A stretch of 64,000 bases of DNA from a virus (IMGVR_UViG_3300028800_000061:1-64000), one strand, 5' to 3'; positions 37,854 to 53,162 are shown, counted from the first letter of the stretch. Numbers and translations: made by a program. Notes: generated from the letters alone by a model not told the origin.

Positions 37854-38012
37854 GAGCTGCGGCTGATAGCACGCGAACACCCCCAGGAAGGCCGGAACGC
37901 CCTTCACCCCGTCCTGGCCAGGGCAAGCCAATTCGTGTCATCGTGCGTTACGATAGGCAGATCGCACGACATCGAATGGTCTGGCACTAACCGCCTCAGG
38001 GGGACGGCACTC

Positions 38013-38354
38013 ATGGCCCAGAAAGTTCTGGTAACTAGCCTCTGCGACCTGCCGCACGATGGCGCAGAGATCGACGCGGCAAACAGGATCGAGTTCGGAT
38101 GGGGGGGCTTGTCCTACGAGCTTGACAGCTGCGACTCGCATGCGAAGGAAATCACGGGGGAGTTTGAAGGGCTGATCGCGTCCGCCCGTCAAGTATCCGC
38201 GAAACGCCCGCCGTTGAAGCGGACCACGAAAACCCGCAAGCACGATGCGGCTGTCCGTGAGTGGGCGGCGGCGATGGGGTACAAGATCAGTGACCGGGGC
38301 CGGATCCCCGCGCATATCCTTTCCGATTACGCCCGCGAGCACCCAGGGGAGTAA
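38013..38354 (+). CDS. lsr2: Lsr2-family nucleoid-associated protein
   Basis: MAQKV...YELD...AVREWA..MGYKISDRGRIPA. Confidence 0.92.
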   Translation: MAQKVLVTSLCDLPHDGAEIDAANRIEFGWGGLSYELDSCDSHAKEITGEFEGLIASARQVSAKRPPLKRTTKTRKHDAAVREWAAAMGYKISDRGRIPAHILSDYAREHPGE

Positions 38355-38717
38355 CTGTCATGGCCGTCCAGGGCAGCGAGCCGGATCTTGATCCGCGTAT
38401 CATCAGCGCTTTGCACCGTATCGAGATACGTACGCCGGGGACTGCGGCGGAAGCCCGGCGCGCTGCCCTGGCCGAGTTGCCGCGGCTTCTCCGCGAGTTG
38501 AGCGAGCTTGATGCGGCCACCAGCCCGCCCAGCGGATAAGGGCACGCTGTGCGCTGCCAATACGCAGCGCACAGTGGCCCGTGCGGCACCTTGAGGTCCA
38601 CACAGCACGACGACCATGGTGCACGCACGCAACTATGCGCTACTGCACCCGACGCCCGGAGGCGTGGCTTACAACACTGCACGGGTGAACTGCTCGCGGG
38701 AAGTAACACTAAACCAA

Positions 38718-38746
38718 TTGCATGCCAGTCCAAGATCATGTAGTCT
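38718..38746 (+). promoter_or_regulatory. Principal-sigma-type promoter of tRNA array
   Basis: TTGCAT(38718)-N17-TAGTCT(38741) in an AT-richer tract. Confidence 0.65.
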
Positions 38747-38779
38747 TAGTATCAGTCAATGATACAAGGTGGTCAAAGG

Positions 38780-38893
38780 GTGAAACCCGCAGCCAGGATC
38801 GCAGGATCCCTGCACCGGCACCAGCCGGCAGCGGGCGACCCTGCCCTGCGCTGGAATGGGATGGAGAAGGCCACCGGAGAGCCTTCCGGGTAG
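38780..38893 (+). CDS. Putative 37-aa leader peptide MKPAARIAGSLHRHQPAAGDPALRWNGMEKATGEPSG
   Basis: SD-like AAGGTGGT before GTG; stop 15 nt before terminator hairpin; below ORF-track cutoff. Confidence 0.55.
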   Translation: MKPAARIAGSLHRHQPAAGDPALRWNGMEKATGEPSG

Positions 38894-38908
38894 CACCAAG
38901 CTAACCGC

Positions 38909-38952
38909 GAAGGCCGCCCCCGGGACCAGGACCCGGCGGGCGGTTTTCTGTT
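38909..38952 (+). terminator. Intrinsic terminator / attenuator upstream of first tRNA
   Basis: GAAGGCCGCCC-CCGGG / CCCGG-GGGCGG followed by TTTTCTGTT. Confidence 0.7.
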
Positions 38953-38969
38953 AGCCGGAACAGTTTCAT

Positions 38970-39043
38970 AGGGATGTAGCTCAACTTGGTAGAGTAGCGG
39001 TCTCCAAAACCGCTGGTTGTGGGTTCGAATCCTGCCATCCCTG
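38970..39043 (+). tRNA. tRNA-Trp(CCA)
   Basis: Manual cloverleaf; GCGGT CT-CCA-AA ACCGC. Confidence 0.93.
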
Positions 39044-39169
39044 CGGAGCACCACCCTTCGGGGGGAATGTGCCTGGCACACCTTGATAACTCCACAGCGG
39101 AAACACCATGATTAACCGTTCCCGTCGCGCGGCGTGGCCAGCCGGCCGGTCGCGCGACGGGAACACCAT

Positions 39170-39243
39170 GGGGCTTTAGCGCAGCCCGGTAGCGCGCCTC
39201 GTTCGCATCGAGGAGGCCGCCGGTTCGAATCCGGCAAGCTCCA
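39170..39243 (+). tRNA. tRNA-Ala(CGC)
   Basis: CCTCG TT-CGC-AT CGAGG; G3:U70. Confidence 0.92.
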
Positions 39244-39321
39244 CGGCGGGAAGTTGAGGGTTCGAATCCCTCCTGGTCCACGCATTGGGCTGGTACCTCA
39301 ATTGGCAGAGGCCCGCATCTT
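39244..39321 (+). ncRNA. Circularly permuted tRNA-like element (3' half before 5' half)
   Basis: T arm 39256-39272, acceptor strands 39273-39279 / 39287-39293, D arm 39296-39311, closing stem GCGGG/CCCGC. Confidence 0.65.
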
Positions 39322-39394
39322 GGGACTGTAGCTCAGCTGGTAGAGCACCTGCTCGGCAGGCAGGGGGTCCGCGGTTCAAATCCGCGCAGTTCCA
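39322..39394 (+). tRNA. tRNA-Ala(GGC)
   Basis: CCTGC TC-GGC-AG GCAGG; G3:U70; C33. Confidence 0.9.
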
Positions 39395-39536
39395 CCGTCC
39401 CGGTTGCGGCATGCCGCACGATGGGGCAAGCGGTGTGCTGCCGCCAGCAACGTGTACGCAGTAAGGGCGAGCGGCCCGGAACTGGCTCCGTGACGACGGG
39501 GCAAAGCCGGGCGGCGGCAGTACGGGCCGTCTTTCA

Positions 39537-39613
39537 GGGGATGTAGCTCAGCTGGGTAGAGCAGCCGCCCTGCAAGCGGCAGGTCATCGGTTCGACTCCG
39601 TTCATCTCCACCA
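39537..39613 (+). tRNA. tRNA-Ala(TGC)
   Basis: GCCGC CC-TGC-AA GCGGC; encoded CCA; C33. Confidence 0.92.
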
Positions 39614-39709
39614 GGTGCCCGGTCTCGTGGCCTAAGCCGCCACGGGGCAGGCGGGCACCCCGTGGCCGGCGTGCCTCCCGGGTGGCTCCCGGGCCGCCGG
39701 CCACGTGAA

Positions 39710-39783
39710 CGGGATGTAGCGCAAGCTGGTAGCGCACCTGGTTTGGGACCAGGGGGTCGTCGGTTCGATTCCGGCCATCCCGA
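39710..39783 (+). tRNA. tRNA-Pro(TGG)
   Basis: CCTGG TT-TGG-GA CCAGG. Confidence 0.94.
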
Positions 39784-39787
39784 CTAC

Positions 39788-39861
39788 GGCTACTTAGCTC
39801 AGTCGGTACGAGCGCGCCCCTGAAAAGGGCGAGGGCCCCCGTTCGATCCGGGGAGTAGCCA
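39788..39861 (+). tRNA. tRNA-Phe(GAA)
   Basis: CGCCC CT-GAA-AA GGGCG. Confidence 0.93.
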
Positions 39862-39865
39862 CTGT

Positions 39866-39937
39866 GCGGGCGTGGCCGAATGGTTTAGGCACCTGGCTTC
39901 CAACCAGGACACGCAGGTTCGATTCCTGTCGCCCGCT
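39866..39937 (+). tRNA. tRNA-Gly(TCC)
   Basis: CCTGG CT-TCC-AA CCAGG. Confidence 0.93.
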
Positions 39938-39941
39938 CTCC

Positions 39942-40014
39942 GCGCCGCTAGCTCATCTGGCAGAGCAGCAGACTCTTAATCTGCGGGTGCGGGGTTCGAG
40001 TCCCTGGCGGCGCA
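39942..40014 (+). tRNA. tRNA-Lys(CTT)
   Basis: GCAGA CT-CTT-AA TCTGC. Confidence 0.94.
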
Positions 40015-40036
40015 CACAGAAACGGGGGTGAAGGCG

Positions 40037-40567
40037 ATGAGGCCGGCGATCCTGATCGACGTGGATGAGGTCCTCAACCCCTCGTTCCGCTGCAACCCCC
40101 CGTACTGCCGGTGCCACCCCCACTGGATCCGGGCGTTCGCTTACGCCCGGGACGGGCAGAAACTCAAGCTGATCCTCAACCCGGCGCACGGCCCGGCCCT
40201 GCTGCAGCTGGCCGCCGACACGGGTGCGGAGCTCGCCTGGTGCACATCCTGGGAGGACCAGGCCAACGACGACATCGGACCCCGGATCGGCCTGCCCCGG
40301 CTGCCGGTGGTCCCGTACCCGCCCCGCCCGAAAACAGGCCCTGGCTCAGTACTGGCCGTGGGCGCGTGGAAAGCACGCCACGCCGTGGCATGGGCCGCAC
40401 GCCGCCCGTTCGCATGGTTCGAGGATGAGCCCGACGCGGGCCCGGAATGCTTCCGGCTCCTCGGTGCCGCACCGCACCTGGTGATACCGGTGGACCGCCG
40501 GACCGGGCTGACCGTGGGCCACATGAACGAGGCTTGGGACTGGCTGAGCGAGCTTACGCGGGCGTAA
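40037..40567 (+). CDS. HAD-domain phosphatase (Swiss-Army-Knife RNA-repair type)
   Basis: LIDVDEVLNP, WCTSW, FAWFEDE, GLT. Confidence 0.82.
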   Translation: MRPAILIDVDEVLNPSFRCNPPYCRCHPHWIRAFAYARDGQKLKLILNPAHGPALLQLAADTGAELAWCTSWEDQANDDIGPRIGLPRLPVVPYPPRPKTGPGSVLAVGAWKARHAVAWAARRPFAWFEDEPDAGPECFRLLGAAPHLVIPVDRRTGLTVGHMNEAWDWLSELTRA

Positions 40568-40632
40568 CCCAATCTGGCAGAGGTGGCAGTCTCAAAAGCT
40601 GCACGGTGCGGGTTCGAGTCCCGCCGCCCGCA
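40558..40632 (+). tRNA. tRNA-Leu(CAA), short variable arm
   Basis: GCAGT CT-CAA-AA GCTGC. Confidence 0.88.
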
Positions 40633-40633
40633 C

Positions 40634-40933
40634 TCACCTGACGAAGGTGAACATCTCGGTCAGGTGCAGGATATCGAGTAGCCGGCGGACAGCCTGTGAT
40701 GGTGCCCGCAACGCCAGCGTGCTGCCTGTCTCTGCCGCCAGTTGTCGGGCGGCGAGTAGCACGCGGATCCCTGATGCGTCCATGAATGACACTGCGGACA
40801 TGTCCGCGATCAGGTCAACCGGGCCGCCGTAGAGGACAGTGCTCATGGCGTTCCCCATGGCAGCGCAGGTGGCGATATCAATCTCGCCGGAGATGCGAAC
40901 TGTGGTGATGGTGGACAGCAGAAGGTCTGTCAT
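40634..40933 (-). CDS. STAS-domain anti-sigma-factor antagonist
   Basis: SGEIDIAT, DMSAVSFMDASG, VRRLLDI. Confidence 0.88.
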   Translation of the reverse strand: MTDLLLSTITTVRISGEIDIATCAAMGNAMSTVLYGGPVDLIADMSAVSFMDASGIRVLLAARQLAAETGSTLALRAPSQAVRRLLDILHLTEMFTFVR

Positions 40934-41091
40934 TGCGGGGGCCCTCCGCACTTGTGCAGCGCGATAGGGCTGGGTCCGGACCCTTTGGCGGCGACTATAT
41001 CCCGATCATGAGCGGGGTTGTCCAGGCACATTGGCAGAGTCTAGGCGATTAGGCAATTGCAAGATGTTCCGGCCCGTAGGGCTGGGAGTAA

Positions 41092-41163
41092 TGCCGGGTG
41101 GGGTAATTGGCAGCCCGCGAGGCTCTGATCCTCGTCGTGTAGGTTCGAGTCCTGCCCCGGCAG
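41092..41163 (+). tRNA. tRNA-Gln(CTG)
   Basis: CGAGG CT-CTG-AT CCTCG; U1:A72. Confidence 0.92.
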
Positions 41164-41175
41164 CTAAGATGTTGC

Positions 41176-41247
41176 GCCCCCGTAGCTCAGTGGTAGAGCG
41201 ACCACCTCGTAAGTGGTAGGCCAGCGGTCCGATTCCGGTCGGGGGCT
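41176..41247 (+). tRNA. tRNA-Thr(CGT)
   Basis: ACCAC CT-CGT-AA GTGGT; atypical T-loop TCCGATT. Confidence 0.88.
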
Positions 41248-41264
41248 CAGGGAGACCGGCAGAG

Positions 41265-41292
41265 ACGCCCTGTCCTGGCCAGGACAGGGCGT
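41265..41292. repeat. 28-bp perfect palindrome
   Basis: ACGCCCTGTCCTGG|CCAGGACAGGGCGT. Confidence 0.9.
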
Positions 41293-41395
41293 GCGATACC
41301 GGAACTGTCTCCCAGGTCCCGGCCAGGAGATGGCCACCTGGTCAAGGAAGCCAAGTCCTGTATCATGGCGCTACGGTCATCAAACCTGTTGACTG

Positions 41396-41466
41396 CGGCG
41401 CCGGCGGGATTCGAACCCACACCCAAACCATACGACTGGCATGCTCATCCATTGAGCTACGGCGCC
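41396..41466 (-). pseudogene. Antisense tRNA-like gene, undetermined anticodon
   Basis: Intact acceptor, D and T arms; anticodon arm TGCCA GTCGTA TGGTT has a 6-nt loop. Confidence 0.7.
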
Positions 41467-41601
41467 TGAAGCTGGCCCGTACGACCGTGTCCGCCAAGGC
41501 CTGGTCGTCGGGCCTTCTTCCATCTTGGGTGGCTGATGGACAGGGACCGGATTCTCCCACCCGGCTTGGCGCACGGAACCGGTGTACGTGTTGCGGGCCG
41601 C

Positions 41602-41675
41602 GTCCTCGTAGACCAATGGCAGGAGTCACGGCCCCGAGGAGGCCGGCAGTGTGCGTTCGAATCGCACCGAGGACA
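41602..41675 (+). tRNA. tRNA-Leu(GAG), short variable arm
   Basis: CGGCC CC-GAG-GA GGCCG; C33. Confidence 0.85.
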
Positions 41676-41676
41676 C

Positions 41677-42024
41677 ATGAGCGATGACTACGACCTGACC
41701 TCCGTGCATTACGCCGAGCCGGTTTTCGGCATGCAGATGGGCACCGGGGTCCTCCGCACCCACGGCGCCTCGGCTTGCGCCGGCCGGGCCTGCTGCATCC
41801 ACAACCCGTCCGCCCATCACATGCGCGGCTGGGAGATGAACTGGCGCGGTGACCTGCGCGTAATGGAGCGGATCTGCCCGTGCCATGGCGTCGGCCATCC
41901 GGACCCGGATGATGTGGCGTACCGGCGCTTGATCGGCCGCGGCGGTGGCACCCACGGCTGCCATGGGTGCTGCCATGCCGGCCATGCGCCGGATGATGGG
42001 ACCGGGCACTCTATGCCCCTGTAG
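41677..42024 (+). CDS. Cys/His-rich phage-type protein
   Basis: CCIHNPSAHHM...MERICPCHGVGHPDPDD...HGCHGCC. Confidence 0.72.
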   Translation: MSDDYDLTSVHYAEPVFGMQMGTGVLRTHGASACAGRACCIHNPSAHHMRGWEMNWRGDLRVMERICPCHGVGHPDPDDVAYRRLIGRGGGTHGCHGCCHAGHAPDDGTGHSMPL

Positions 42025-42091
42025 CTCAGTTGGCAGAGCAGCCCCCTTGTAAGGGGCAGGTCGCAGGTTCAAATCCTTGTCAGGGGCTCCA
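42015..42091 (+). tRNA. tRNA-Thr(TGT)
   Basis: GCCCC CT-TGT-AA GGGGC; encoded CCA. Confidence 0.9.
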
Positions 42092-42149
42092 TAACCGGCC
42101 AGACTGTTACAATGCGTGACATCCTGGGTTTTCCTGGCCGGAGGCCGCA

Positions 42150-42485
42150 GTGACCAAGCAACGATCCCCCTGGCTTCTCATCCTGATCTTGGTTGCCAGT
42201 TACGCGATCGGCCACCTGGCCGGCCTGATCCTCACCGCCGTGATCGCGTTCCTCGCCTACCTGGTGTCCGTTCGGATGAACCCGCGGATCGCGTGCCGCA
42301 AATGCGACGGCAAAGGCCGGTTCAACGGGTGGCTGTTCACCTGGGTGTGGCACTTCTGCCACCACTGCGCAGGCAAGGGCGCCGGAATCCGGTGGGGTGC
42401 GGCACGGTGGGGGACTGAGGCCGCCCGCGCTGAAGCGCTCCGGAACCAAACCACGCTGAAGAACGCGACCACTCGACGCCGCTGA
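42150..42485 (+). CDS. Membrane protein with CxxCxGxG Zn finger
   Basis: SD GGAGG; two TM; CRKCDGKG, CHHCAGKG. Confidence 0.72.
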   Translation: MTKQRSPWLLILILVASYAIGHLAGLILTAVIAFLAYLVSVRMNPRIACRKCDGKGRFNGWLFTWVWHFCHHCAGKGAGIRWGAARWGTEAARAEALRNQTTLKNATTRRR

Positions 42486-42503
42486 TTAGAAGGAACCGCC
42501 GCT

Positions 42504-42992
42504 TTGGGTAGCAAGCATGAACGGCACGCACGATCCAAGGAGTGGGACACCCCACCAGCCCGATCCGCTGAGGTGCGTGCCGCTGCGGTAGCAGACCAGG
42601 GCGAGCCGGTGAAACGGACCCCGGCCCGGAAGGACACAGCCCGCTGGTGCGGCGGTCACACCGGTCGTGAACACGCCCCGCATCTGATGACACCGGCAGA
42701 AACGACTGGGTGGCGGCAGCGCGCATGCGGGTGGGTGACCACCTGGGACCGCAGGGAACGCGACTACAAGATCGCATGGCGTTGCGGGCACTGGGTGCGG
42801 TGCGGGCAGTGCGGCCGGACCCTCCGTGACATCGGATCCCTGGAGCTCACCGAGTGCAAGACTTACCCCGGGACCAAGGTGCAGCGCGCCGCAGCCGAGG
42901 CAGACCTGGCCGACTACCGGGTGCGCAGGGCGAAATGGGCCAGGCGCAGGCTGGTGATCAACGGGCCACAGGGATACCGCAGATCCCGTTAG
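42504..42992 (+). CDS. Cys/His Zn-binding protein
   Basis: SD AAGGA; RWC...H.PHL...WRCGH...CGQCG; paralogous to 51267-51716. Confidence 0.7.
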   Translation: MGSKHERHARSKEWDTPPARSAEVRAAAVADQGEPVKRTPARKDTARWCGGHTGREHAPHLMTPAETTGWRQRACGWVTTWDRRERDYKIAWRCGHWVRCGQCGRTLRDIGSLELTECKTYPGTKVQRAAAEADLADYRVRRAKWARRRLVINGPQGYRRSR

Positions 42993-43177
42993 CCCGGTTC
43001 GACGTAGTAGCCGACACCAGGAAAGCCGCACACAGGGCAGTCGTTCTGCGTGTGATCCGATCCGGGGATGCCGGCGCACGCTGCCACCAGCAGGGCACGG
43101 TACGCCGCGGTGTACTTCTCGCCTGTGCGCTCCATGCGCTCCCGGACGAGATCCTTGAGTTCGCCGCTACCTGTCAT
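42989..43177 (-). CDS. Small hypothetical protein
   Basis: KDLVRERMERTGEKYTAAYRAL. Confidence 0.55.
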   Translation of the reverse strand: MTGSGELKDLVRERMERTGEKYTAAYRALLVAACAGIPGSDHTQNDCPVCGFPGVGYYVEPG

Positions 43178-43370
43178 CGTTCATCCGCTGCCCGGCGGCC
43201 GCTGCCCGCGCTCCGGTCGCCGTGATTGCTGGGCGATGACAGTAGGTGGTGAACGCGATCCCGAACTTTGCGGTTCGTGGGGTCCTTGTCCTCGGCGCTG
43301 ACGTGGACGCGGGCCGCGGCAGCTCGGAGAGTGGCAGGCGCTCTCAGCCAACCGGAAGTGTAACAGCCGA

Positions 43371-43446
43371 TGGGGAATAGGGTAATCAGGCAGCCCGCCA
43401 GGTTTTGGCCCTGGGTCTTGTGGAGGTTCGAGTCCTCCTTCCCCAG
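43371..43446 (+). tRNA. tRNA-Gln(TTG)
   Basis: CCAGG TT-TTG-GC CCTGG. Confidence 0.88.
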
Positions 43447-43469
43447 CTAGCAACGGGGAGGGACCGTCA

Positions 43470-44027
43470 ATGTCGAACCGGTTCGTGACGGCAGACCTGC
43501 ATCTGATGCACATCGCTCAGTCCGGCCGCCGTGGTTACGCCACTGCCGCCGAGCACGATGAAGCGATCATCACCACATGGAATGAGATCGTGCGACCGCG
43601 CGACATGGTGATCGTGCTCGGCGATGTCGGCGTGGCCCCATCCCGGCTGTTCCTGCCGCTGATCGGGCAGCTGCACGGCACCCTGGACTTGATCTCCGGC
43701 AACCACGACGAGGTACACCCGATGCACCGTGGCGCGGCGGCGAAGATGGCGGCGTGGATAGGGCCCGGACGGTTCCGGTCGATCGGATCCCAGGGCATGC
43801 TGCGGGCTGGCACGCACCGGGTAATGCTGTCCCACTTCCCGTACAAGGGTGATCACACAGCGAAAGACCGGTGCGCGGAGTGGCGTCCCCGGGATGAAGG
43901 GTTGCCGTTGTTCCACGGGCACACGCATTTCAAGGATCGCGGCGGCGGCCAGGTGGTCCATGCCGGCTGGGATGCGTGGGGAGCACCTGTCCCAGTCGAT
44001 ACGCTGTGTGCGTTGATTGCCGCGTAA
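43470..44027 (+). CDS. Calcineurin-like metallophosphoesterase
   Basis: ADLH, LGD, GNHD, SHFP, HGHTH. Confidence 0.92.
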   Translation: MSNRFVTADLHLMHIAQSGRRGYATAAEHDEAIITTWNEIVRPRDMVIVLGDVGVAPSRLFLPLIGQLHGTLDLISGNHDEVHPMHRGAAAKMAAWIGPGRFRSIGSQGMLRAGTHRVMLSHFPYKGDHTAKDRCAEWRPRDEGLPLFHGHTHFKDRGGGQVVHAGWDAWGAPVPVDTLCALIAA

Positions 44028-44033
44028 ATTTAG

Positions 44034-44106
44034 GCCGCTGTAGCTCAGCCGGCAGAGCACCTGCATGGTAAGCAGGAGGTCCCGGGTTCGATTCCCGTCA
44101 GCGGCT
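44034..44106 (+). tRNA. tRNA-Thr(GGT)
   Basis: CCTGC AT-GGT-AA GCAGG. Confidence 0.92.
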
Positions 44107-44157
44107 CGGCGGGGGAGAGTTAACCAATCTAGCGCCTGGACGCTCTCCCCCGCGCGT

Positions 44158-44230
44158 GTGGATGTGGCTCAGCTGGTAGAGCATCACCTTGCCAAGGTGA
44201 GGGTCGCGAGTTCGAATCTCGTCATCCACT
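44158..44230 (+). tRNA. tRNA-Gly(GCC)
   Basis: TCACC TT-GCC-AA GGTGA. Confidence 0.95.
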
Positions 44231-44300
44231 CCGGTTGCCCAGTTCCCCGTAACTTGGTATAGTTGAGCAAAACTAGGTTACGGGAAGCTGGGATCTTGAT

Positions 44301-44528
44301 ATGGCAGAGCTGCAGGCCATCCTCGCCATCCAAATCGCCGGGGACCGTCCCGGCGGCGGGCGCACCTACTCCCACGAAGAAATCCTCGACGGGGCCGACT
44401 GGGCAACACGTGCGCAAGTACTGGATCACATGCTCAGCCAGATTGACTTGCGATACCGCACAGCCACAGAGACCTCACGAGCCGATATGACCATCCTCAA
44501 TTTCACCGTCGAGCCGAACAACCTGTGA
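44301..44528 (+). CDS. Hypothetical protein
   Basis: Protein-like ORF after hairpin 44238-44293. Confidence 0.5.
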   Translation: MAELQAILAIQIAGDRPGGGRTYSHEEILDGADWATRAQVLDHMLSQIDLRYRTATETSRADMTILNFTVEPNNL

Positions 44529-44566
44529 TGGAACGGCAACTCCGCGGTGGCGAGGTGGGCGGCTAG

Positions 44567-45244
44567 TTGCTGTACCTCGCAAACCCGTCAACGACGCCTA
44601 TACGGCAAGCCATGACCAGCTATGAACTCGGCTGCATCATCACCCCCAGGCAAGGCAACCGCCTCCCCAGGGAAGCGCTCTGGGGTGCCGACAACGGGTG
44701 CGGCCCTGGAAAAAACGGCATGATCGGCCAAGGGTTCCCCGGCTACGAGCCCTTCCTGGGAATGCTCCAAGACCACGCCGACTACGCCGACGATTGCTTG
44801 TTCGCGGTAGCACCCGATGTGGTAGGCGATGCGGACGGGACGCTTAAACGGTCCAAGTGGATGCTCGAATGGATCCGTTACGCCGGCTACCCGGCCGCGC
44901 TCGCCGCTCAAGACGGACTGGAGAACCTGACGGTGCCCTGGGATGATTTCGACGCCTTGTTCATCGGCGGCAGCACAGCGTGGAAACTTGGCGCCGCGGC
45001 CCGCCGGCTGATCGCCGAAGCGAACCGGCGGAACAAGTGGGTTCACATGGGCAGGGTCAATACACTGAAACGTCTCCGGTACGCGGCCACGGTCGGATGT
45101 CACAGCGTAGATGGCACGTTCCTCACATTCGGCCCGGATATCAACCTGCCGCGGCTGCTCCGGTACCTCCGGATCGTCAACACGCAACCAACTTTGTGGG
45201 CGTCGAGCTGGCCGCCGCCGCTCCCGTTGACGGTCGCAGCATGA
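44567..45244 (+). CDS. Queuine tRNA-ribosyltransferase (TGT/DpdA)-like protein
   Basis: ADNG, APDVVGD, AQDG, FIGGST, VHMGRVN, SVDGT, matching the TGT-fold pattern. Confidence 0.7.
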   Translation: MLYLANPSTTPIRQAMTSYELGCIITPRQGNRLPREALWGADNGCGPGKNGMIGQGFPGYEPFLGMLQDHADYADDCLFAVAPDVVGDADGTLKRSKWMLEWIRYAGYPAALAAQDGLENLTVPWDDFDALFIGGSTAWKLGAAARRLIAEANRRNKWVHMGRVNTLKRLRYAATVGCHSVDGTFLTFGPDINLPRLLRYLRIVNTQPTLWASSWPPPLPLTVAA

Positions 45245-45831
45245 CCGGCCAGATCCATGTAGCAGGCGAGGGTCAGCAGCTTGCCTTGCCGGGAACGCTA
45301 TGGCCAGCAGGCTGCGACCGCGGGCAAGGAGACCCGCTGTTCTTCGGGAAGCTTAAAAAGGACCAGGCGAACGACCTGATCGCAGCGTTCGGTCACCCAC
45401 TCGGCCCGTTCACCCGCCCGTTCGGGTACCAGGCATGGGGCCTGGCGATCGATGGGCAAGCCGTCGCTGTCGCGATATCCGGATCAACTGTCGGCGCGAC
45501 CTCTGCCGGATACAAGCGCAGGCAAGTTGTCGACCTCGCCCGGATCGCACGCCACCCAGACCACCCAGGAGTCATGAGGGTCATGCTGCGCTTGTGGCGG
45601 GACTACCTCGCGCCGCGGTGGGATTACGGAGACGGGCAGGTGCAAGCCGCTGTCTCCTACGCACTGCCCGGCAAAGCAGGGAACCTGTACCGGTTCGACG
45701 GGTGGAAGCTTCACGGGTACTGCAAACCGTGGGCTGGCGGCGGCACCTGGAGCAAACCGTCGAAAGCGAACGGGATGGCTGATGGGGTAAAGAAGCTGTT
45801 CTACTACGAGTACCCGCAGCGGGTGGCGTGA
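45241..45831 (+). CDS. Mom-like GNAT-fold protein
   Basis: AVAISG...DLARIA...AVSYA...GNLYRFDGWK. Confidence 0.6.
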   Translation: MTGQIHVAGEGQQLALPGTLWPAGCDRGQGDPLFFGKLKKDQANDLIAAFGHPLGPFTRPFGYQAWGLAIDGQAVAVAISGSTVGATSAGYKRRQVVDLARIARHPDHPGVMRVMLRLWRDYLAPRWDYGDGQVQAAVSYALPGKAGNLYRFDGWKLHGYCKPWAGGGTWSKPSKANGMADGVKKLFYYEYPQRVA

Positions 45832-46919
45832 TGCTCGCCACTGAGGCAGATGTACTGCGGACCCTGAGAACCGGCACTTACACCGTCAGCGAACTGTACG
45901 ACCTGTGTGAACAGCGAACAGTGGTCGGCCGGGATGGTGGCCAGGACCCCATCCCGGCCCACTCAGGTGATCTCCGGTGGAAGCGCCGCGTTCGCGGCGC
46001 TCTGGAGACTCTGCGCCGGGCCGGCCGGGCCGAGCGGATCGACCGGACCTGCTGGGCAATCCAGGGCACACCCCGCCAGCCGGCCCGCCTGCTGCTGATC
46101 GTGACCGGCGCAACCCCGCGTGACTTCGAACTGCGATTGCAGGCCGCGGCCGAACTGCTCGCCGAACTGGACGAGCCTGCCGACCTGGTGCTGTGCGACC
46201 CGCCGTACGGACTGCGCCGCGGCCGCGGCCACTACACCGACGGCAACGGGTACCGCCGCGACCACACCAGCGTGATCGGCGGCTACGTCGACGTCGACCC
46301 GGGCGAGTACTCCGACTTCACCCACGATTGGATCCGGGCCGCAGCCGCTGCGCTCCGGCCGGCCGGGCAGCTCGCCACGATCACCGGACCGCAGCGTGCC
46401 GCGATCGTGCAGTGCGCCGCCGAGCAGGCCGGGCTCACCTGGGTCAGTACCATCGCCGCCCGGCGCACTTTCCCGCTGGCCACACTGCGCCGGCCAGCCG
46501 CAGCGCATTGGGCCATCACGGTCATGTGCCGCAACGCGCTGAGCAACCCTCGCCGGGTGTTCAACCCGCCACCCGATCTGCCCAGGGCCCGCAGCGGCCA
46601 CCCTTACCCGCTGGACTGGTGGGCTGACGGCAACGGCCGGGCCGACCGCCCCGGGCTGCTCCGCTACGACAACAGCCTCCCGCTTCCCCTTGTCCTGCGG
46701 GCGGTCACCGCGTTCAGTAACCGCGGCGAGCACGTCGTAGACCCGTTCCTCGGCGCGGGCACAACCGCTGTCGCCTGCTGGAAAACCGGCCGGCGCTTCA
46801 CCGGCAGCGACCTGAATCCAGCCGCCGTCCGCTTCGCAGCCGCACGGCTGCTCGATGAGCACGCCTGGCCGGATGAGCGCGAGCCAGGATTGTTTCCCGC
46901 AATGGATGTCGCGCCGTGA
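45828..46919 (+). CDS. N4/N6 DNA methyltransferase (beta-type order) with N-terminal wHTH
   Basis: DLVLCDPPY precedes VVDPFLGAGTT. Confidence 0.85.
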   Translation: MMLATEADVLRTLRTGTYTVSELYDLCEQRTVVGRDGGQDPIPAHSGDLRWKRRVRGALETLRRAGRAERIDRTCWAIQGTPRQPARLLLIVTGATPRDFELRLQAAAELLAELDEPADLVLCDPPYGLRRGRGHYTDGNGYRRDHTSVIGGYVDVDPGEYSDFTHDWIRAAAAALRPAGQLATITGPQRAAIVQCAAEQAGLTWVSTIAARRTFPLATLRRPAAAHWAITVMCRNALSNPRRVFNPPPDLPRARSGHPYPLDWWADGNGRADRPGLLRYDNSLPLPLVLRAVTAFSNRGEHVVDPFLGAGTTAVACWKTGRRFTGSDLNPAAVRFAAARLLDEHAWPDEREPGLFPAMDVAP

Positions 46920-47461
46920 GCACCGGCCTGGCCGCGATCAACCTGGACCTGATCGAGGACGCGGCGAACATCCTGGCGTGGCGCGGCTGGTGGGAACCCG
47001 GCGATGAGGACAGCTTCGTACCCGACGAGCTCGTCACCGAACTGATCGAGGCTGCCCGGGCTCCTTGCGAGGTCTGCAGCACACCGGAGGGGGTGTGCAG
47101 CACACCGGACGAGGTGGCCGATCACTTCCTCGCCCGCAAACAGGAAGAGTGGGAACGGTCCTGGCCGGCGTGGGCATGCAACTGCGGTCACGTTTACAAA
47201 CTGCTCAATGAAGAGTTCTTCGAGGTCGCAGACAACGGGTTCCACGGCCCGTTCTGCGCCGGCATGGCCGGGGAGCAAGATTGCCCGCACCCATCCTGCG
47301 CGAGCATTCTGCTCGGCGGCCACCTGCCGGGGGATCGCGCCGGGTGCATCCGCCGCGGCAGCAAGAACCGGGTCAAGCACAGCGACGCATGCCGGGGATG
47401 CGGCTGCAAGTTCGCGGATACGATAGCCGACCAGCTCAACCCGCAGCAGGCCCTGTTCTAG
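46916..47461 (+). CDS. Cys-rich hypothetical protein
   Basis: GTGA overlap; several CxxC. Confidence 0.65.
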   Translation: MSTGLAAINLDLIEDAANILAWRGWWEPGDEDSFVPDELVTELIEAARAPCEVCSTPEGVCSTPDEVADHFLARKQEEWERSWPAWACNCGHVYKLLNEEFFEVADNGFHGPFCAGMAGEQDCPHPSCASILLGGHLPGDRAGCIRRGSKNRVKHSDACRGCGCKFADTIADQLNPQQALF

Positions 47462-47565
47462 AAGATCCTGGCAGTAAAGTCGTGCACCTGCGCTCAGCGG
47501 GTTGCGGCACAATCGTGCGGGCGGTGATCTGAATTAGTCCATCGGGATCACCGCCCGCGCGCCTT

Positions 47566-47640
47566 GCCCCTCTAGCCCAATCCGGCAGAGGCGCCACGTT
47601 CAGGGCGTGGAGGTTCGGGGTTCGACTCCCCGGAGGGGCA
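47566..47640 (+). tRNA. tRNA-Leu(CAG), short variable arm
   Basis: CCACG TT-CAG-GG CGTGG. Confidence 0.88.
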
Positions 47641-47644
47641 CTTG

Positions 47645-47732
47645 GGAGGGGTCGCCTAGTCGGCCTATGGCGCGTCACTGCTAATGACGTTGGGCATTGC
47701 GTCCCTCGCGGGTTCGAATCCCGCCCCCTCCG
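47645..47732 (+). tRNA. tRNA-Ser(GCT)
   Basis: CGTCA CT-GCT-AA TGACG; long variable arm. Confidence 0.93.
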
Positions 47733-47735
47733 CAC

Positions 47736-47828
47736 GGAGACGTCGCGCAGTGGCCTAGCGCTCTAGTCTTGAAAACTAGCAGAGCACGGGAGTGTCTCTC
47801 GTGGGTTCGAATCCCACCGTCTCCTCCA
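47736..47828 (+). tRNA. tRNA-Ser(TGA)
   Basis: CTAGT CT-TGA-AA ACTAG; long variable arm; encoded CCA. Confidence 0.93.
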
Positions 47829-47829
47829 A

Positions 47830-47903
47830 GGGCATGTAGCTCAGCCGGTTAGAGCACTCCCCTGATAAGGGAGAGGCCGGAGGTTCAACTCCTCCTGTGC
47901 CCA
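47830..47903 (+). tRNA. tRNA-Ile(GAT)
   Basis: CTCCC CT-GAT-AA GGGAG. Confidence 0.93.
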
Positions 47904-47994
47904 CTGCCAGCAGGCCACTGCGGCCGGGGTTGTCGCAGCGACAACAGGGCCGGGAAGCCCCCGGGCCGCGGGCCTGCTGGCCACGACGGGAGCG

Positions 47995-48264
47995 GTGGTG
48001 TCAGGGCGGCAGCGGCAGCGGAACCGGCTCGGGCGGCGGCAGGGGTGGATCTGCCCGTGGTGCCGCCTCCCGATCACCCGCGCCCAGTTCGCGGATGCCA
48101 CCCGCGACCATGTGATCCCGAAGTCCCACGGAGGCACTGCGGTACTGCGGAACCTCCAGTTGCTGCACGGCGAGTGCAACGCGGAGAAAGCGAGCCGGTG
48201 CCTGGGTTGCCCCCGGTGCGTCCCTGGCGAGATAGCTCAGCCGGTCAGAGCGTCCCGCTCATAA
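47995..48264 (+). CDS. HNH endonuclease
   Basis: CPWC...TRDHVIPKSHGG....NLQLLHGECNAEK. Confidence 0.88.
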   Translation: MVSGRQRQRNRLGRRQGWICPWCRLPITRAQFADATRDHVIPKSHGGTAVLRNLQLLHGECNAEKASRCLGCPRCVPGEIAQPVRASRS

Positions 48265-48302
48265 CGGGATGGTCGCAGGTTCAAGTCCTGCTCTCGCTAC
48301 CA
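48226..48302 (+). tRNA. tRNA-Met(CAT), elongator-type
   Basis: TCCCG CT-CAT-AA CGGGA; GGC... acceptor; encoded CCA (Ile2 identity not excluded). Confidence 0.88.
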
Positions 48303-48376
48303 GTACGCCAACATGCAGTCCTAGATAGGGGAGGTGAACGGGTTGAAACCCTGCGGTAAACAGATACGCATCGCAG

Positions 48377-48450
48377 GCCCTGTTAGCTCAATTGGATAGA
48401 GCAGCGGACTTTTAATCCGCGAGTTCTGGGTTCGAGTCCCAGGCGGGGCA
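48377..48450 (+). tRNA. tRNA-Lys(TTT)
   Basis: GCGGA CT-TTT-AA TCCGC. Confidence 0.93.
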
Positions 48451-48454
48451 CAAT

Positions 48455-48526
48455 GCGCTGTTAGCTCAGTGGATAGAGTGACTGCCTTCTAAGCAGGGGA
48501 GCGGGGTTCGAATCCCTGACGGCGCG
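48455..48526 (+). tRNA. tRNA-Arg(TCT)
   Basis: ACTGC CT-TCT-AA GCAGG; A20. Confidence 0.88.
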
Positions 48527-48541
48527 CAAAGCACAAGGCAA

Positions 48542-48615
48542 GCCCTGGTGGGGTAATTGGCCAGCCCGCCACCCTCTCACGGTGGAGACTGCCGGTTCGA
48601 ATCCGGTCCGGGGTA
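48542..48615 (+). tRNA. tRNA-Glu(CTC)
   Basis: CCACC CT-CTC-AC GGTGG. Confidence 0.9.
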
Positions 48616-48616
48616 C

Positions 48617-48692
48617 GGCGCGGTAGGCAAAATGGAGAAGGCCGCCAGACTTTCAACCTGGTGACTTGCGGGTTCGAGCCCCGTCCGCGCTA
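48617..48692 (+). tRNA. tRNA-Glu(TTC)
   Basis: CCAGA CT-TTC-AA CCTGG. Confidence 0.85.
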
Positions 48693-48706
48693 CTATGGGA
48701 TCACGA

Positions 48707-48780
48707 CGCGGGGTGGAGCAGCTCGGTAGCTCGGTGGGCTCATAACCCACAGGTCGCAGGTTCAAATCCTGTCCCCGCTA
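48707..48780 (+). tRNA. Initiator tRNA-fMet(CAT)
   Basis: C1 mismatch, three G:C pairs GGG CT-CAT-AA CCC. Confidence 0.95.
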
Positions 48781-48895
48781 CCGCCGTGCCGGGTCGGCTC
48801 CGGTCGCGGCTAATTACGGCTGGCAGACGTGCTAGGGCCCGTGGCGGATTGGGGATCTAGCCGACCCCGCGTGAAGCGCGACGGGCACCAACCTT

Positions 48896-48967
48896 TCCCC
48901 CGTAGCTCAATAGGCAGAGCGTCCGGCTGTTAACCGGTTGGTGTTGGTTCAAGTCCAGCCGGGGGAG
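48896..48967 (+). tRNA. tRNA-Asn(GTT)
   Basis: TCCGG CT-GTT-AA CCGGT. Confidence 0.9.
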
Positions 48968-48971
48968 CGAT

Positions 48972-49046
48972 GGTCCTGTAGAGCAGGTTGGAGTGCTCGC
49001 CACCCTGTCAAGGTGGAGGTCGCGGGTTCAAATCCCGTCGGGACCG
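48972..49046 (+). tRNA. tRNA-Asp(GTC)
   Basis: CCACC CT-GTC-AA GGTGG. Confidence 0.95.
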
Positions 49047-49050
49047 CTAA

Positions 49051-49122
49051 ACCCGGTTAGCTCAGTGGCAGAGCACCACGATGACAGCGTGGGGGTCGGA
49101 GGTTCGGTTCCTCCACCGGGTA
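49051..49122 (+). tRNA. tRNA-Val(GAC)
   Basis: CCACG AT-GAC-AG CGTGG. Confidence 0.88.
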
Positions 49123-49314
49123 CAGGCACCTGGGAGCCTGGCTTCAAATGGCAGGAGCAAAGTGATAACGCGCCGAAAGGCTATGCCCACTCCGGTGGGC
49201 GGGTAGCGGTCGCCCAGGTGCCGTTGCACACCGAGAGGATCGCCTTGCTGACCGGGTATGTCTTGCTGCCGGGTGATTGTGACAGCCCGGCCGCGGCAGC
49301 GTTAGGCTCCCGGC

Positions 49315-49869
49315 ATGCTTCTCTCTGACCGGGACATCGCCGACGCGATCGCGGCCCGCGACCTGGTGGTAGACGGCGAGCTGGCCAGCGACTCATTCCA
49401 GCCTGCCAGCCTCGATCTGCACCTTGGCGCCGAGTTCCGGGTGTTCCTCAGTCACCGGGTCGCTTGCATCGACACTGCCGGCGGCCAGGGGGATCTCACT
49501 GAACCGGTAGTGATCTCCGACGGTGAGCCGTTTGTCCTGCACCCCGGCGAGTTCGCCCTCGGCTGCACTGTGGAGGCCATCACTCTCTCCGATGATCTGG
49601 CCGCCCGGCTCGAAGGCAAATCCAGTCTCGGCCGCCTCGGCCTGCAAGCGCACTCCACCGCCGGGTGGATTGACCCAGGGTTCAGCGGGCAGATCACCCT
49701 GGAGTTGTCCAATGTCGCCCCGGTACCGATCAAACTGTGGCCTGGCATGAAAATCGGCCAGCTGTGCTTGTTCCGCCTGGGCGCCCCGGCGTTGCGCCCG
49801 TACGGGCACCCGGGCCTCGGCTCCCGTTACCAGGGGCAGCGAGGCCCGGTGCCGTCCCGGGCTGGTTAG
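49315..49869 (+). CDS. dcd: dCTP deaminase
   Basis: [51 protein letters not shown]. Confidence 0.95.
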
Positions 49870-50216
49870 TGGCTGGAGTAGGAGCTGGTGGTCCGTCGCC
49901 ACCGTTCCGTCCACGCCCACTGGTCTAGCACCAGTTGGGTGAACGACTGGTCATCCATCTGCATGGTGTCCGTCACGGACCACCTGAGCATCTCGATCGC
50001 CGCGTCGTAGTCGGCGGTGTGGTTCTCCGGCTCGGGCAGGTCGGCGTGCCGGTCCGCCTTCTGGCCGGCCCGCAGTTCGGCGATCCGGTCCTGGTGCCAG
50101 CCGATCATCTGCTCCCGGTAGGCGACGATAGCCTCCTGGTAGGTGGCGAGGTGCGCGGCCCGGTTGGCTTCCAGCGCCTCGAGCAGCCTGGCGCGGTCAA
50201 CGGTTACTGGTCTCAT
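49866..50216 (-). CDS. Phage-type hypothetical protein
   Basis: NRAAH...[15 protein letters not shown]...LVLDQWAW; SD lies antisense in tRNA-Arg acceptor stem. Confidence 0.75.
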
Positions 50217-50221
50217 TTCTT

Positions 50222-50295
50222 GCTCCCATAGCTCAGTGGATTAGAGCGCCGCCCTCCGGAGGCGGGTGCCGCAGGTTCGAGTCCTGCTGGGGGCG
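50222..50295 (+). tRNA. tRNA-Arg(CCG)
   Basis: CCGCC CT-CCG-GA GGCGG. Confidence 0.92.
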
Positions 50296-50298
50296 CGC

Positions 50299-50727
50299 TT
50301 AACTGCTCAGCGGATCTGTGCGCGGTGCCGGCCACTCGGGGGCCGCTGTGAAATCGGCCGGGTCGACGCTGCCGAGCTCGCAGACGCGGGTGACCAGGTC
50401 GATGTACGCGGCGCTGGGATCGTCGCCGCGGCCGATCGGCCACCGTTCCTGGTTGGCCCGGTGCCAGAAATCCTGGCACTCGATGTCCGATGCGGCCCAG
50501 TCCGTCCAGGGCGTCTCGGTCAGCATGTGCGGGTCCACGGGGAACGCCAGCCAACTGCGACCCTCGTAGGTGCCGTTGTACCTGGCCTGCACAACAACCG
50601 CAGGCTCGGCTTCTGGCCGGTTACCGAAACCACCTGCGGTGATGTAAAGCTTCGCGGTCAGCATTATTTTTCCGCCGGGTGCACCGGGCCACTCAACGAA
50701 GATGCTTCGCTCATTCACACCGGGCAT
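50299..50727 (-). CDS. Hypothetical protein
   Basis: ARYNGTYEG..WLAF...IGRG; fits exactly between two tRNAs. Confidence 0.65.
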   Translation of the reverse strand: MPGVNERSIFVEWPGAPGGKIMLTAKLYITAGGFGNRPEAEPAVVVQARYNGTYEGRSWLAFPVDPHMLTETPWTDWAASDIECQDFWHRANQERWPIGRGDDPSAAYIDLVTRVCELGSVDPADFTAAPEWPAPRTDPLSS

Positions 50728-50743
50728 TGTTTCACGTATCGTT

Positions 50744-50816
50744 ACCCCCGTGGCCCAACGGATAAGGCGCCAGACTACGGATCTGGAGTGTGCCGGTTCA
50801 ACTCCGGCCGGGGGTA
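50744..50816 (+). tRNA. tRNA-Arg(ACG)
   Basis: CCAGA CT-ACG-GA TCTGG. Confidence 0.92.
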
Positions 50817-50863
50817 CAAAGGCTTTCCGGTCTGAACGTCCCATTCCGCCGGCTGCACGGCTG

Positions 50864-51034
50864 GTGCAGATCAGCATGCCTTACGCCACGTTCGCTGTGG
50901 CATTCGCCGATGGTGTGATTGTCGCTGCCGCGCCCATCGCCCAGTGGGCAGTAGGTAAAGATGTGAGCACTGTCAAGGACTACTACCAGCGGAAAGGTGC
51001 TGTGTTCGCGCACGTCCCAGGCACACCCGGTTAG
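50864..51034 (+). CDS. Small phage-type protein
   Basis: PYATFAV...AAAPIAQWAVGK...YYQRKG; start uncertain. Confidence 0.55.
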   Translation: MQISMPYATFAVAFADGVIVAAAPIAQWAVGKDVSTVKDYYQRKGAVFAHVPGTPG

Positions 51035-51096
51035 CTCACCGGCAGAGCGCCTCGTTCACACCGAGGAGGCAGAGGGGTCGGCACCTTCACCGGGTA
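51025..51096 (+). tRNA. tRNA-Val(CAC)
   Basis: CCTCG TT-CAC-AC CGAGG; degenerate T-loop GTCGGCA. Confidence 0.8.
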
Positions 51097-51130
51097 CAGG
51101 TCACCGTAAACTAGCCGGGTAACCGGCCTT

Positions 51131-51209
51131 GGTGGGTGTAGCTCAGTCAGGCCAGAGCGCCCGGTTGTGATCCGGGTACGCATCGGTTCGAATCCGGTCA
51201 CCCACCCCA
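51131..51209 (+). tRNA. tRNA-His(GTG)
   Basis: CCCGG TT-GTG-AT CCGGG; G-1:C73; encoded CCA. Confidence 0.93.
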
Positions 51210-51266
51210 AAAGAGCCCTGCTGTGCGGGGCGGAGTGACAATGCGGGAAGGCTGGACCGGGCAAGC

Positions 51267-51716
51267 ATGGGCAAGGGCCAGGGTGCGGGCAACCCAACCG
51301 GCAAAGGACGCGCACCTAGGAAGCCCGTAGCGCGCACGGACAGGAAACGCTGGTGCAAAGACCAGCATGGTGTCAAGCATGTCCCCCATCTCGTTTTCAG
51401 GCCCCGGGGCGTGGCATACACGGAGTGCCGGCTAGCACGCGATTTTGAGGTATGGTGCCGGGATGGCTGGGTGTGCATGCACAGAGACGAGTGCGCCCGA
51501 TGCGGCCAGGTGCTCCGGCCCCGGCTCGGCGGCATTCCCCGCGAGGAATGCCCGACCTTTCAGCAAGCGATGAAAGACGAAACCCGTGAGATCCTCGCCG
51601 ACCCGCTCGTGCTGATCCGCATCCGCCAGGCGCAAGCTGTGGTGGCGGCCGGGAACATTACCCGCAGCGTGCAAGCAGTCCGGTCACTTCTGCGTGTCCC
51701 CGGGAACCGCACATGA
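51267..51716 (+). CDS. Zn-binding protein with antitoxin-like C-terminal tail
   Basis: RWC...H.PHL...WVCMH..CARCG; tail ETREILADP...IRQA...GNITRSVQAVR. Confidence 0.65.
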   Translation: MGKGQGAGNPTGKGRAPRKPVARTDRKRWCKDQHGVKHVPHLVFRPRGVAYTECRLARDFEVWCRDGWVCMHRDECARCGQVLRPRLGGIPREECPTFQQAMKDETREILADPLVLIRIRQAQAVVAAGNITRSVQAVRSLLRVPGNRT

Positions 51717-52114: not shown

Positions 52115-52123
52115 TTTGAGCTT

Positions 52124-52205
52124 GGCAGGTTGCCCGAGCGGCCAAAGGGAACGGTCTGTAAAACCGTCGTGTAATGCTGCGCTGGTTCGAATCCAGCACC
52201 TGCCA
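52124..52205 (+). tRNA. tRNA-Tyr(GTA)
   Basis: ACGGT CT-GTA-AA ACCGT; long variable arm. Confidence 0.93.
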
Positions 52206-52207
52206 CG

Positions 52208-53092: not shown

Positions 53093-53158
53093 TAGCTCAG
53101 CGGATAGAGCGCCTGCCTCCTAAGCAGGATGCCGCCAGTTCGATTCTGGCCTAGCCCA
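53086..53158 (+). tRNA. tRNA-Arg(CCT)
   Basis: CCTGC CT-CCT-AA GCAGG. Confidence 0.93.
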
Positions 53159-53162
53159 CGAT

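Follow-up and report, generated by a model that had tools for sequence, protein, structure and literature searches.

A putative translation-coupled attenuator preceding the tRNA array of a phage

The IMG/VR virus record IMGVR_UViG_3300028800_000061 describes a phage genome of 159.8 kb (98% complete according to CheckV, ~65% G+C), of which we analysed the first 64 kb, called the window below. ARAGORN finds 36 plus-strand tRNA genes in the window between positions 38970 and 53237, beginning with a tRNA-Trp gene. Immediately in front of this array lies a leader region consisting of a putative promoter, a Shine-Dalgarno sequence, a short open reading frame (ORF) of 37 codons, and a predicted intrinsic terminator (Table 1). 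These elements, and the complementary hexamers GAAGGC and GCCTTC within them, had been placed here by a first-pass annotation of the sequence, and all were recovered at the same positions. The predicted transcription start is at about 38753–38754, which gives a leader transcript of roughly 200 nt. The terminator hairpin (38909–38948) has 16 pairs, one bulge and a 7-nt loop, with ΔG −29.5 kcal/mol and the tail UUUUCUGUU, and it ends 21 nt before tRNA-Trp. This distance is too short to hold another promoter, so transcripts of tRNA-Trp must cross the hairpin. We consider it probable, from the features of the sequence and its relatives, that the leader is a ribosome-dependent transcription attenuator built of three RNA segments.

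The leader RNA of the window folds better than shuffled sequences (z = −4.55), and the 5' arm of its terminator has two possible partners. In the alternative fold, which the first-pass annotation had proposed and which we computed, the last codons of the ORF (segment 2, 38874–38889) pair with 38905–38923 (within segment 3) to make an antiterminator hairpin spanning 38862–38924. Its ΔG is −28.0 kcal/mol, compared to −29.5 kcal/mol for the terminator. The duplex between the window's own segments 2 and 3 has −22.8 kcal/mol, and this is the best among 16 possible partners.

We searched for relatives of the leader by several routes. Searches by blastn with the leaders of the window, G002 and L186 against cultured phages (INPHARED) and plasmids (PLSDB) gave tRNA hits only and no match to a leader. 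Through a shared PAPS-reductase-like protein we found arrays in two metagenomic phages only, G001 (68 kb) and G002 (165 kb), and in both of them the order 5' of the array is promoter, short ORF, hairpin, ~20 nt, and then tRNA-Trp as the first gene. None of the 22 relatives reached through a DnaB-like helicase and a 1730-aa protein has a comparable tRNA-Trp. Two GGGTAR...ACC patterns, which do not fit the window's own spacing, retrieved only G001, G002 and chance matches; a pattern made from the spacer 3' of tRNA-Trp had no match in IMG/VR; and a protein search with an extended 77-aa frame of G002 had no match either. A pattern combining terminator and tRNA picked out the metagenome contig L055 among 69 metagenome matches and nothing useful among 42 bacterial ones. 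A looser pattern, requiring GGCGG 18–48 nt before a tRNA-Trp of the window's type, yielded 47 IMG/VR loci. In 15 high-GC loci of this set (14 of them non-redundant) tRNA-Trp is the first gene in an array of 5–31 tRNAs, and the module of promoter, ORF and terminator is present in all of these 15 except L189. Two further copies lie at contig ends (L184 and L209). One of 401 sampled actinomycete genomes, G393, carries the module (Table 1), where it heads at least 18 tRNA genes, tRNA-Trp being the first; this chromosomal copy is probably a prophage or another integrated element. Two genomes flagged as unpublished, G289 and G330, contribute to none of the claims.

Together with the window these sequences make up 19 non-redundant leaders (L055, G001, G002, L166, L172, L174, L179, L181, L184, L186, L190, L195, L197, L201, L207, L208, L209 and G393), with L175 set aside as near-identical to L172 and L191 as identical to L186. 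They fall into about nine sequence families. The arrangement described in the first-pass annotation has a wider distribution: promoter, an ORF of 27–44 codons, predicted intrinsic terminator and tRNA-Trp follow one another in 18 other sequences, most of them IMG/VR phage contigs, with the reading frame and the pairing of segments 2 and 3 kept and the pairing co-varying. tRNA-Trp is the first array gene in every relative for which there is downstream sequence. Positional conservation is also what supports the window's promoter, which a simple promoter scan did not list because TAGTCT fits TATAAT at only 3 of 6 positions. A −35 element, a spacer of 17–18 nt and a TAnnnT element occupy the same place in relatives–for example, TTGTGC-N17-TACCGT in L055, TTGCCG-N17-TACCTT in G002, TTGCCC-N18-TACCAT in G001, and TTGACA-N17-TACCTT in L174, L186 and L190.

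The distance from the stop codon to the terminator stem is 15–24 nt in 19 of the 19 leaders. The hairpins range from −16 to −33 kcal/mol, lie 8–35 nt before tRNA-Trp, and are followed by U-rich tails in 18 of the 19, several with 5–7 consecutive Us; the inner stem co-varies among relatives. When the last 24 nt of the ORF were compared to the 5' arm of the terminator in 16 leaders, their complementarity beat that of composition-matched shuffles (Fisher P = 1e-9, a value which, like the other P values given here, overstates independence because the leaders are related by descent in their nine or so families). With six flanking bases added and 18 leaders included, the ORF ends paired with their own 5' arms at a mean of −24.0 kcal/mol and with those of other leaders at −19.2 kcal/mol (permutation P < 5e-5), and the own partner was the best of 18 for seven leaders. 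The two arms of the terminator, used as a positive control, gave −25.5 kcal/mol for own and −19.0 kcal/mol for cross pairs, and two other 24-nt windows of the ORF, used as a negative control, gave −11.8 and −13.0 kcal/mol with no difference between own and cross pairs. The antiterminator is thus about as strong as the terminator, specific to its position, and co-varying. If the 3' arm is blocked, the minimum-energy fold pairs the end of the ORF with the 5' arm in most sequences, and every sequence makes the terminator once a ribosome is modelled at the stop codon.

The first-pass annotation had drawn this as a classic attenuator, in which a segment 1 competes for segment 2. Its segments 2, 3 and 4 are the same ones that the comparative analysis picks out. 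The 1:2 element did not hold up as a feature of the family. A 6-bp pairing is possible in the window, but across 16 leaders segment 2 is no more complementary than shuffles to the 42 nt that precede it (Fisher P = 0.92), and we rejected a conserved 1:2 hairpin for this reason. Consequently the switch has only segments 2, 3 and 4, and a leader that is not translated should read through instead of super-attenuating. Loss of the start codon is predicted to raise read-through, the opposite of what happens in trp-type leaders.

Several properties of the ORF indicate that ribosomes enter it. A Shine-Dalgarno sequence of the GGAG/AGGA type lies 1–8 nt before the start in 11 of the 13 relatives that are not leaderless, and in G001, G002, L172 and L175 an ATG stands 6–7 nt after the −10 element, which is a leaderless arrangement. 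Leaderless AUG and GUG transcripts are common in mycobacteria and often open with short ORFs (10.1101/834739). A comparable ORF (at least 30 codons, starting near the transcription start, and stopping 5–30 nt before the hairpin) appears in 7–10% of dinucleotide shuffles per sequence, and an ORF of this kind is present in every family. In 15 of 16 leaders GC content is highest at the third codon position, and the pooled value for third positions (GC3) is 0.83, compared to 0.795 in the long genes of this phage. In the window an alternative in-frame ATG at 38759 would give a leader peptide of 44 amino acids. L186 and L191 have, in addition, a second, leaderless frame of 18 codons, MAPPGAQRTGAGRPAPLP, at the predicted transcription start 5' of the main ORF; it ends with a TGA inside the Shine-Dalgarno sequence of the main ORF, and translational coupling of the two frames is possible.

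A frame so clearly selected to stay open and be translated would also suit an ordinary small-protein gene with its own terminator, in which case the tRNAs would arise from constitutive read-through of a leaky terminator, with the leader released by RNase P, and the resemblance of the ORF's end to the 3' arm of the terminator would mean nothing for regulation. Short genes are commonly followed at once by a terminator, and within families some blocks of peptide sequence (SKQQxRGWY, LPEDNC, NPQHML and GRWR) are common to the members. Between families, however, the peptides are almost wholly different, and substitutions between relatives are spread evenly over the codon positions–for example, 11, 9 and 13, or 12, 14 and 10–with no excess at third positions. 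Searches of Pfam and PHROG found no family for the leader ORF. On these grounds we rejected a functional small protein. An ordinary gene also leaves unexplained the 15–24 nt spacing, the avoidance of TGA stop codons described below, and a co-varying pairing of the last codons with the 5' arm that is as strong as the terminator and absent from other windows of the ORF, and we regard this explanation as improbable. The frame appears instead to be kept open and translated while its product is not conserved, and this combination is the signature of a leader peptide.

The first-pass annotation had also suggested that ribosomes stall at Trp, Asn, Gly or Met codons of the leader. Of 16 leaders, 14 have at least one UGG 5' of segment 2, compared to ~42% expected, and the count becomes 17 of 19 when L184, L209 and G393 are included. 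UGG is never tandem, its position shifts within families, it is missing from L172 and L175, and it is found inside segment 2 in L179 (where it is the only UGG), L195, L197 and L201. A Trp-specific signal in the leaders is only suggestive. Rare codons are not enriched in the leaders, whose pooled GC3 is normal, and only the leader of the window has many of them. The stop codons of 16 leaders are TAG in 11, TAA in 4 and TGA in 1, compared to 62% TGA among 213 ORFs of the phage (P = 6e-6; P = 0.003 by family). This bias suggests selection on the site and mode of translation termination. Since tRNA-Trp is the main near-cognate reader of UGA, the cause could be avoidance of UGA read-through by the tRNA-Trp encoded downstream, and a need for RF1-type termination is also possible.

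What the computations show is that the parts of the module are present and conserved, that the ORF has a coding signature and a constant range of spacing from the stem, and that the alternative pairing co-varies. Beyond the ability of these structures to form, we infer the course of events: actual termination, its modulation by translation, the direction of the response, and its physiological trigger. In the attenuator that we propose, host RNA polymerase would start at the leader promoter and make the ~200-nt leader, whose ORF would be translated for the act of translation and not for its product. The leading edge of a ribosome is known from toeprint and footprint data to lie ~10–11 nt past the stop codon, which is short of a stem that begins 15–24 nt past the stop, so the terminator is free to form. 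A ribosome on the last codons or the stop codon at the time when segments 3 and 4 emerge would bury segment 2, the terminator would form, and transcription would end ~20 nt before tRNA-Trp. If the ribosome were late, stalled upstream (for instance at a single UGG) or absent, segments 2 and 3 would pair first, the terminator could not be completed, and the polymerase would enter tRNA-Trp and the genes beyond it. Nascent-RNA folding of the window agrees with this scheme, with the antiterminator forming when a ribosome is placed at the UGG at 38852 and being lost when the ribosome is at the stop codon. The net logic would be negative feedback, with poor translation giving more phage tRNA.

Several observations weigh against such an attenuator, in addition to the shared descent of the leaders. 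The GGCGG pattern favours GC hairpins in front of tRNA-Trp and so enriches the collection for them, though not for the ORF, its frame, the spacing or the complementarity. In L189 (IMGVR_UViG_3300038393_003049) a promoter, TTGACC...CATGAT, lies directly 5' of tRNA-Trp, and neither a leader ORF nor a terminator is present, which makes the module dispensable and L189 a natural control for an array lacking the leader. The hairpin of G001 has no U-tract, and the start of the ORF in L055 is weak. In the window, complementarity without the flanking bases is no better than in shuffles (P = 0.23). For three of the four sequences examined first, complementarity between the entire upstream region and the 5' arm did not exceed that of shuffles, which confines the signal to the last codons of the ORF. 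Folding at equilibrium favours the terminator state in every case, and the switch must therefore work kinetically. Finally, the first-pass annotation had the leader gating the entire array of 36 genes, a claim that the sequence leaves unsupported: four promoter-like sites occur inside the array (39083–39112, 41339–41366, 44235–44263 and 50714–50742), and by their presence much of it may be free from the leader.

A promoter that gives ~200 nt of RNA up to a strong terminator, with a long operon behind it, is also the geometry of factor-dependent antitermination. At the lambda promoter pR' the default product is the 194-nt 6S RNA, which ends at the terminator tR' unless Q brings about antitermination, and the put element of phage HK022 is used in a similar setting, likewise with a constitutive promoter. 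By this explanation the short transcript would be the default, a factor from phage or host or a put-like RNA in cis would make the polymerase resistant to terminators, and the ORF would be irrelevant. A long untranslated tRNA transcript would gain from processive antitermination, and there are genes for DNA-binding proteins just upstream (a MerR/excisionase-type helix-turn-helix (HTH) protein in G001 and G002, Lsr2 in the window). These upstream genes vary between the relatives, however, and apart from the promoter and the terminator the families have no conserved sequence motif in common. Rfam gave no known antitermination RNA family for the leader, and no qut- or put-like element was found, in searches made with no dedicated model; a GCTCTTT after the hairpin of G002 resembles boxA and is not conserved in other leaders. 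The lambda Q and HK022 put systems need no translated ORF, whereas what is conserved in this module is translational–the open frame, the start signals, the position of the stop, and the 2:3 pairing–and we give antitermination little credence. It is more improbable still that the hairpin is a stabilising 3' structure or nuclease site whose alternative pairing tunes decay or access of RNase P: tRNA precursors are processed ~20 nt downstream, the hairpin of G001 lacks a U-tract, and in the window 38884–38895 can pair with 38949–38960 to lengthen the stem, but this outer extension is not consistent in relatives, and 18 of 19 hairpins have U-rich tails directly after the GC stem, which is the signature that mycobacterial RNA polymerase needs for intrinsic termination.

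A more specific version of the attenuator, which we put forward tentatively and think rather doubtful, is that the leader is an autoregulatory loop that senses tRNA. Its UGG would report the supply of charged tRNA-Trp, the tRNA encoded right behind the terminator at the start of the array, and UGA would be avoided as a stop codon because of its near-cognate reading by this tRNA. Anticodon nucleases, tRNA-targeting toxins or host shut-off would deplete or cleave tRNAs, the stalled ribosomes would allow the antiterminator to form, and loss of host tRNA would be answered by a full replacement set. If true, this loop would be a demand-driven counter-defence circuit that needs nothing beyond RNA and the ribosome, and it would be widespread among phages of high GC content. 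The first-pass annotation had included repair enzymes in the response; the array genes gave only weak hints to Pfam families, below the curated cut-offs (HAD_SAK_2, E = 1.5e-4, and a metallophosphatase), and we do not retain this part.

Table 1. Positions of the leader elements, the tRNA array and neighbouring features. Coordinates are those of the window unless another sequence is named.
Feature	Coordinates	Strand	Remarks
Promoter (putative): −35 TTGCAT, 17-nt spacer, −10 TAGTCT	38718–38723, 38741–38746	+	Read from the sequence
A-rich stretch	38700–38717	+	5' of the promoter
Shine-Dalgarno sequence AAGGTGG	38766–38772	+	7 nt 5' of the GTG start at 38780
Leader ORF VKPAARIAGSLHRHQPAAGDPALRWNGMEKATGEPSG	38780–38893	+	37 codons + TAG; GTG start; ends ...RWNGMEKATGEPSG
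Sole Trp codon, UGG	38852–38854	+	~20 nt 5' of segment 2; stop codon 13 codons further on
Segment 1, GAAGGC	38866–38871	+	Can pair with 38881–38886 after the terminator forms (fold of 38862–38952)
Segment 2, CCGG.A.GCCUUCCGG	38874–38889	+	5' strand of the antiterminator; last five sense codons of the leader ORF
GCCTTC hexamer	38881–38886	+	Inside segment 2
Leader stop codon, TAG	38891–38893	+	15 nt 5' of the terminator stem
Segment 3	38905–38924	+	5' flank and 5' arm of the terminator; common to antiterminator and terminator
GAAGGC hexamer, second copy	38909–38914	+	5' arm of the terminator
Segment 4	38932–38948	+	Pairs with segment 3; followed by Us
Predicted intrinsic terminator	38909–38952	+	GAAGGCCGCCCCCGGG / loop ACCAGGA / CCCGGCGGGCGGUUUUC, then UGUU
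tRNA-Trp (CCA)	38970–39044	+	First array gene; ARAGORN and Rfam, 64.3 bits
Remaining array	39170–53237	+	35 tRNA genes interleaved with plus-strand ORFs
59-aa ORF	38360–38539	+	Upstream neighbour of the leader
Perfect 11-bp hairpin CTGTGCGCTGC / GCAGCGCACAG, 6-nt loop	38547–38574	+	Just 3' of the stop of the 59-aa ORF; no U-tract
MerR/excisionase-type HTH region	L025 2451–2671 (G002); L026 ~1375–1615 (G001), minus strand		ORF 5' of the leader
Array and module region in G393 (L243)	C4:581000–587100 (2.1 Mb contig)	−	Module copy at ~586.6–587.0 kb: 43-aa ORF ending GWRRE, TAG, terminator with UUUUU

The phage comes from rhizosphere metagenomes, and identical DNA is present in four other rhizosphere runs, without population variants. 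An Lsr2-like protein is encoded at 37935–38354, a short way 5' of the leader region, and this gene points to an actinobacterial host. The hairpin that follows the 59-aa ORF (Table 1) probably ends the upstream transcription unit, which would make the leader a separate unit. In G002 and G001 the gene directly 5' of the leader encodes a small HTH protein of the MerR/excisionase type (...TVTRWA..G...IRT.GGHRRYRES...), which we take to be BldC-like.

On the other side of tRNA-Trp, the window has a 125-nt spacer (39045–39169) in which CCCTTCGGGGGGAAT and AACTCCACAG are common to L055 (700–840). The spacer contains the promoter-like sequence TTGATA-N18-CATGAT (39083–39112) and a long perfect stem, GTTCCCGTCGCGCG...CGCGCGACGGGAAC, at ~39118–39165; its role may be that of an internal promoter or of a site for RNA processing. 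ARAGORN also called a minus-strand tRNA with a two-base anticodon at 41395–41466, which looks spurious in an array that is otherwise strictly on the plus strand. Within the array of L055 (1403–1475) it called a tRNA whose anticodon has four bases (tcca), possibly a quadruplet-decoding or a degenerate tRNA.

Phage tRNA arrays have been discussed as codon compensation and as counter-defence against host systems that cleave tRNA (PMC10264068, PMC12803027). Apart from one studied accessory array, in Anabaena, the control of such arrays, phage ones included, is largely unknown. Riboswitches of the T-box type also choose between an antiterminator and a terminator, and they do so by sensing tRNA. We rejected a T-box because the leaders of the window, L207 and L174 had no Rfam match at E values up to 10. 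The T-box motif is AGGGUGGNACCGCG, and a sequence resembling its core, CGAGGGUGGUAC, occurs inside the leader ORF (codons R-G-W-Y) of L174, L186/L191 and L207. It lies ~70 nt before the terminator and not in the antiterminator, it is absent from L190, the window and most relatives, and the likeness is probably a coincidence.

The closest resemblance is to the leader-peptide attenuators of amino acid operons, known from trp, his, leu, ilv and pheA in enterobacteria and from trp, ilvB and leu in Corynebacterium and Streptomyces (PMC1262725, PMC11857589). As in these, a short promoter-proximal ORF precedes mutually exclusive antiterminator and terminator structures, the position of the ribosome would decide between them, and the peptide is unconstrained. 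Of the features of a leader attenuator, the module appears to have an ORF with start signals, a predicted intrinsic terminator and an antiterminator that a ribosome can cover, and to lack the 1:2 hairpin. It differs further from the amino acid operon attenuators in lacking regulatory codons in a row (a single UGG at most), in placing segment 2 within the last codons and not after the stop, and in having phage tRNAs instead of biosynthetic enzymes as its putative targets. The leaderless polycysteine attenuators of mycobacteria (10.1101/834739) are likewise actinobacterial and use a short ORF as an attenuating first cistron, and the ORFs of G001, G002, L172 and L175 similarly start at the predicted transcription start. 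Unlike those attenuators, the ORF of the window is led by a Shine-Dalgarno sequence and has no Cys codon (none of its relatives has more than one), tRNA genes would be the targets, and an intrinsic terminator with a defined antiterminator would provide the read-out.

A physiological parallel is the trn operon of Anabaena PCC 7120. This long accessory array of tRNA genes was shown experimentally to be expressed more strongly under translational stress (PMC8421152). Its logic is the same as the one we propose for the phage module. The trn operon belongs to a cyanobacterial host and not to a phage, no leader ORF or terminator has been described for it, and its control is at the level of the promoter, through direct repeats over the −10 element and the start site that presumably bind a repressor (PMC8421152). 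By eye we noticed no tandem 9-nt direct repeats over the −10 element and start at 38700–38760, where no formal search was made. Full-text searches of the literature bore out the first-pass annotation's impression that there was no precedent, finding no report of such control for tRNA genes or phage tRNA arrays. Within the literature so searched, this would be the first attenuator of its kind to act on tRNA genes rather than enzymes. The module is compact (~230 nt) and could serve as a sensor of translation capacity in actinobacteria, and short unannotated ORFs beside other tRNA arrays merit annotation. If the leader is indeed a leader-peptide attenuator, it represents a second way of coupling tRNA supply to translational demand, one that acts purely in cis, beside the promoter-level control of the Anabaena operon.

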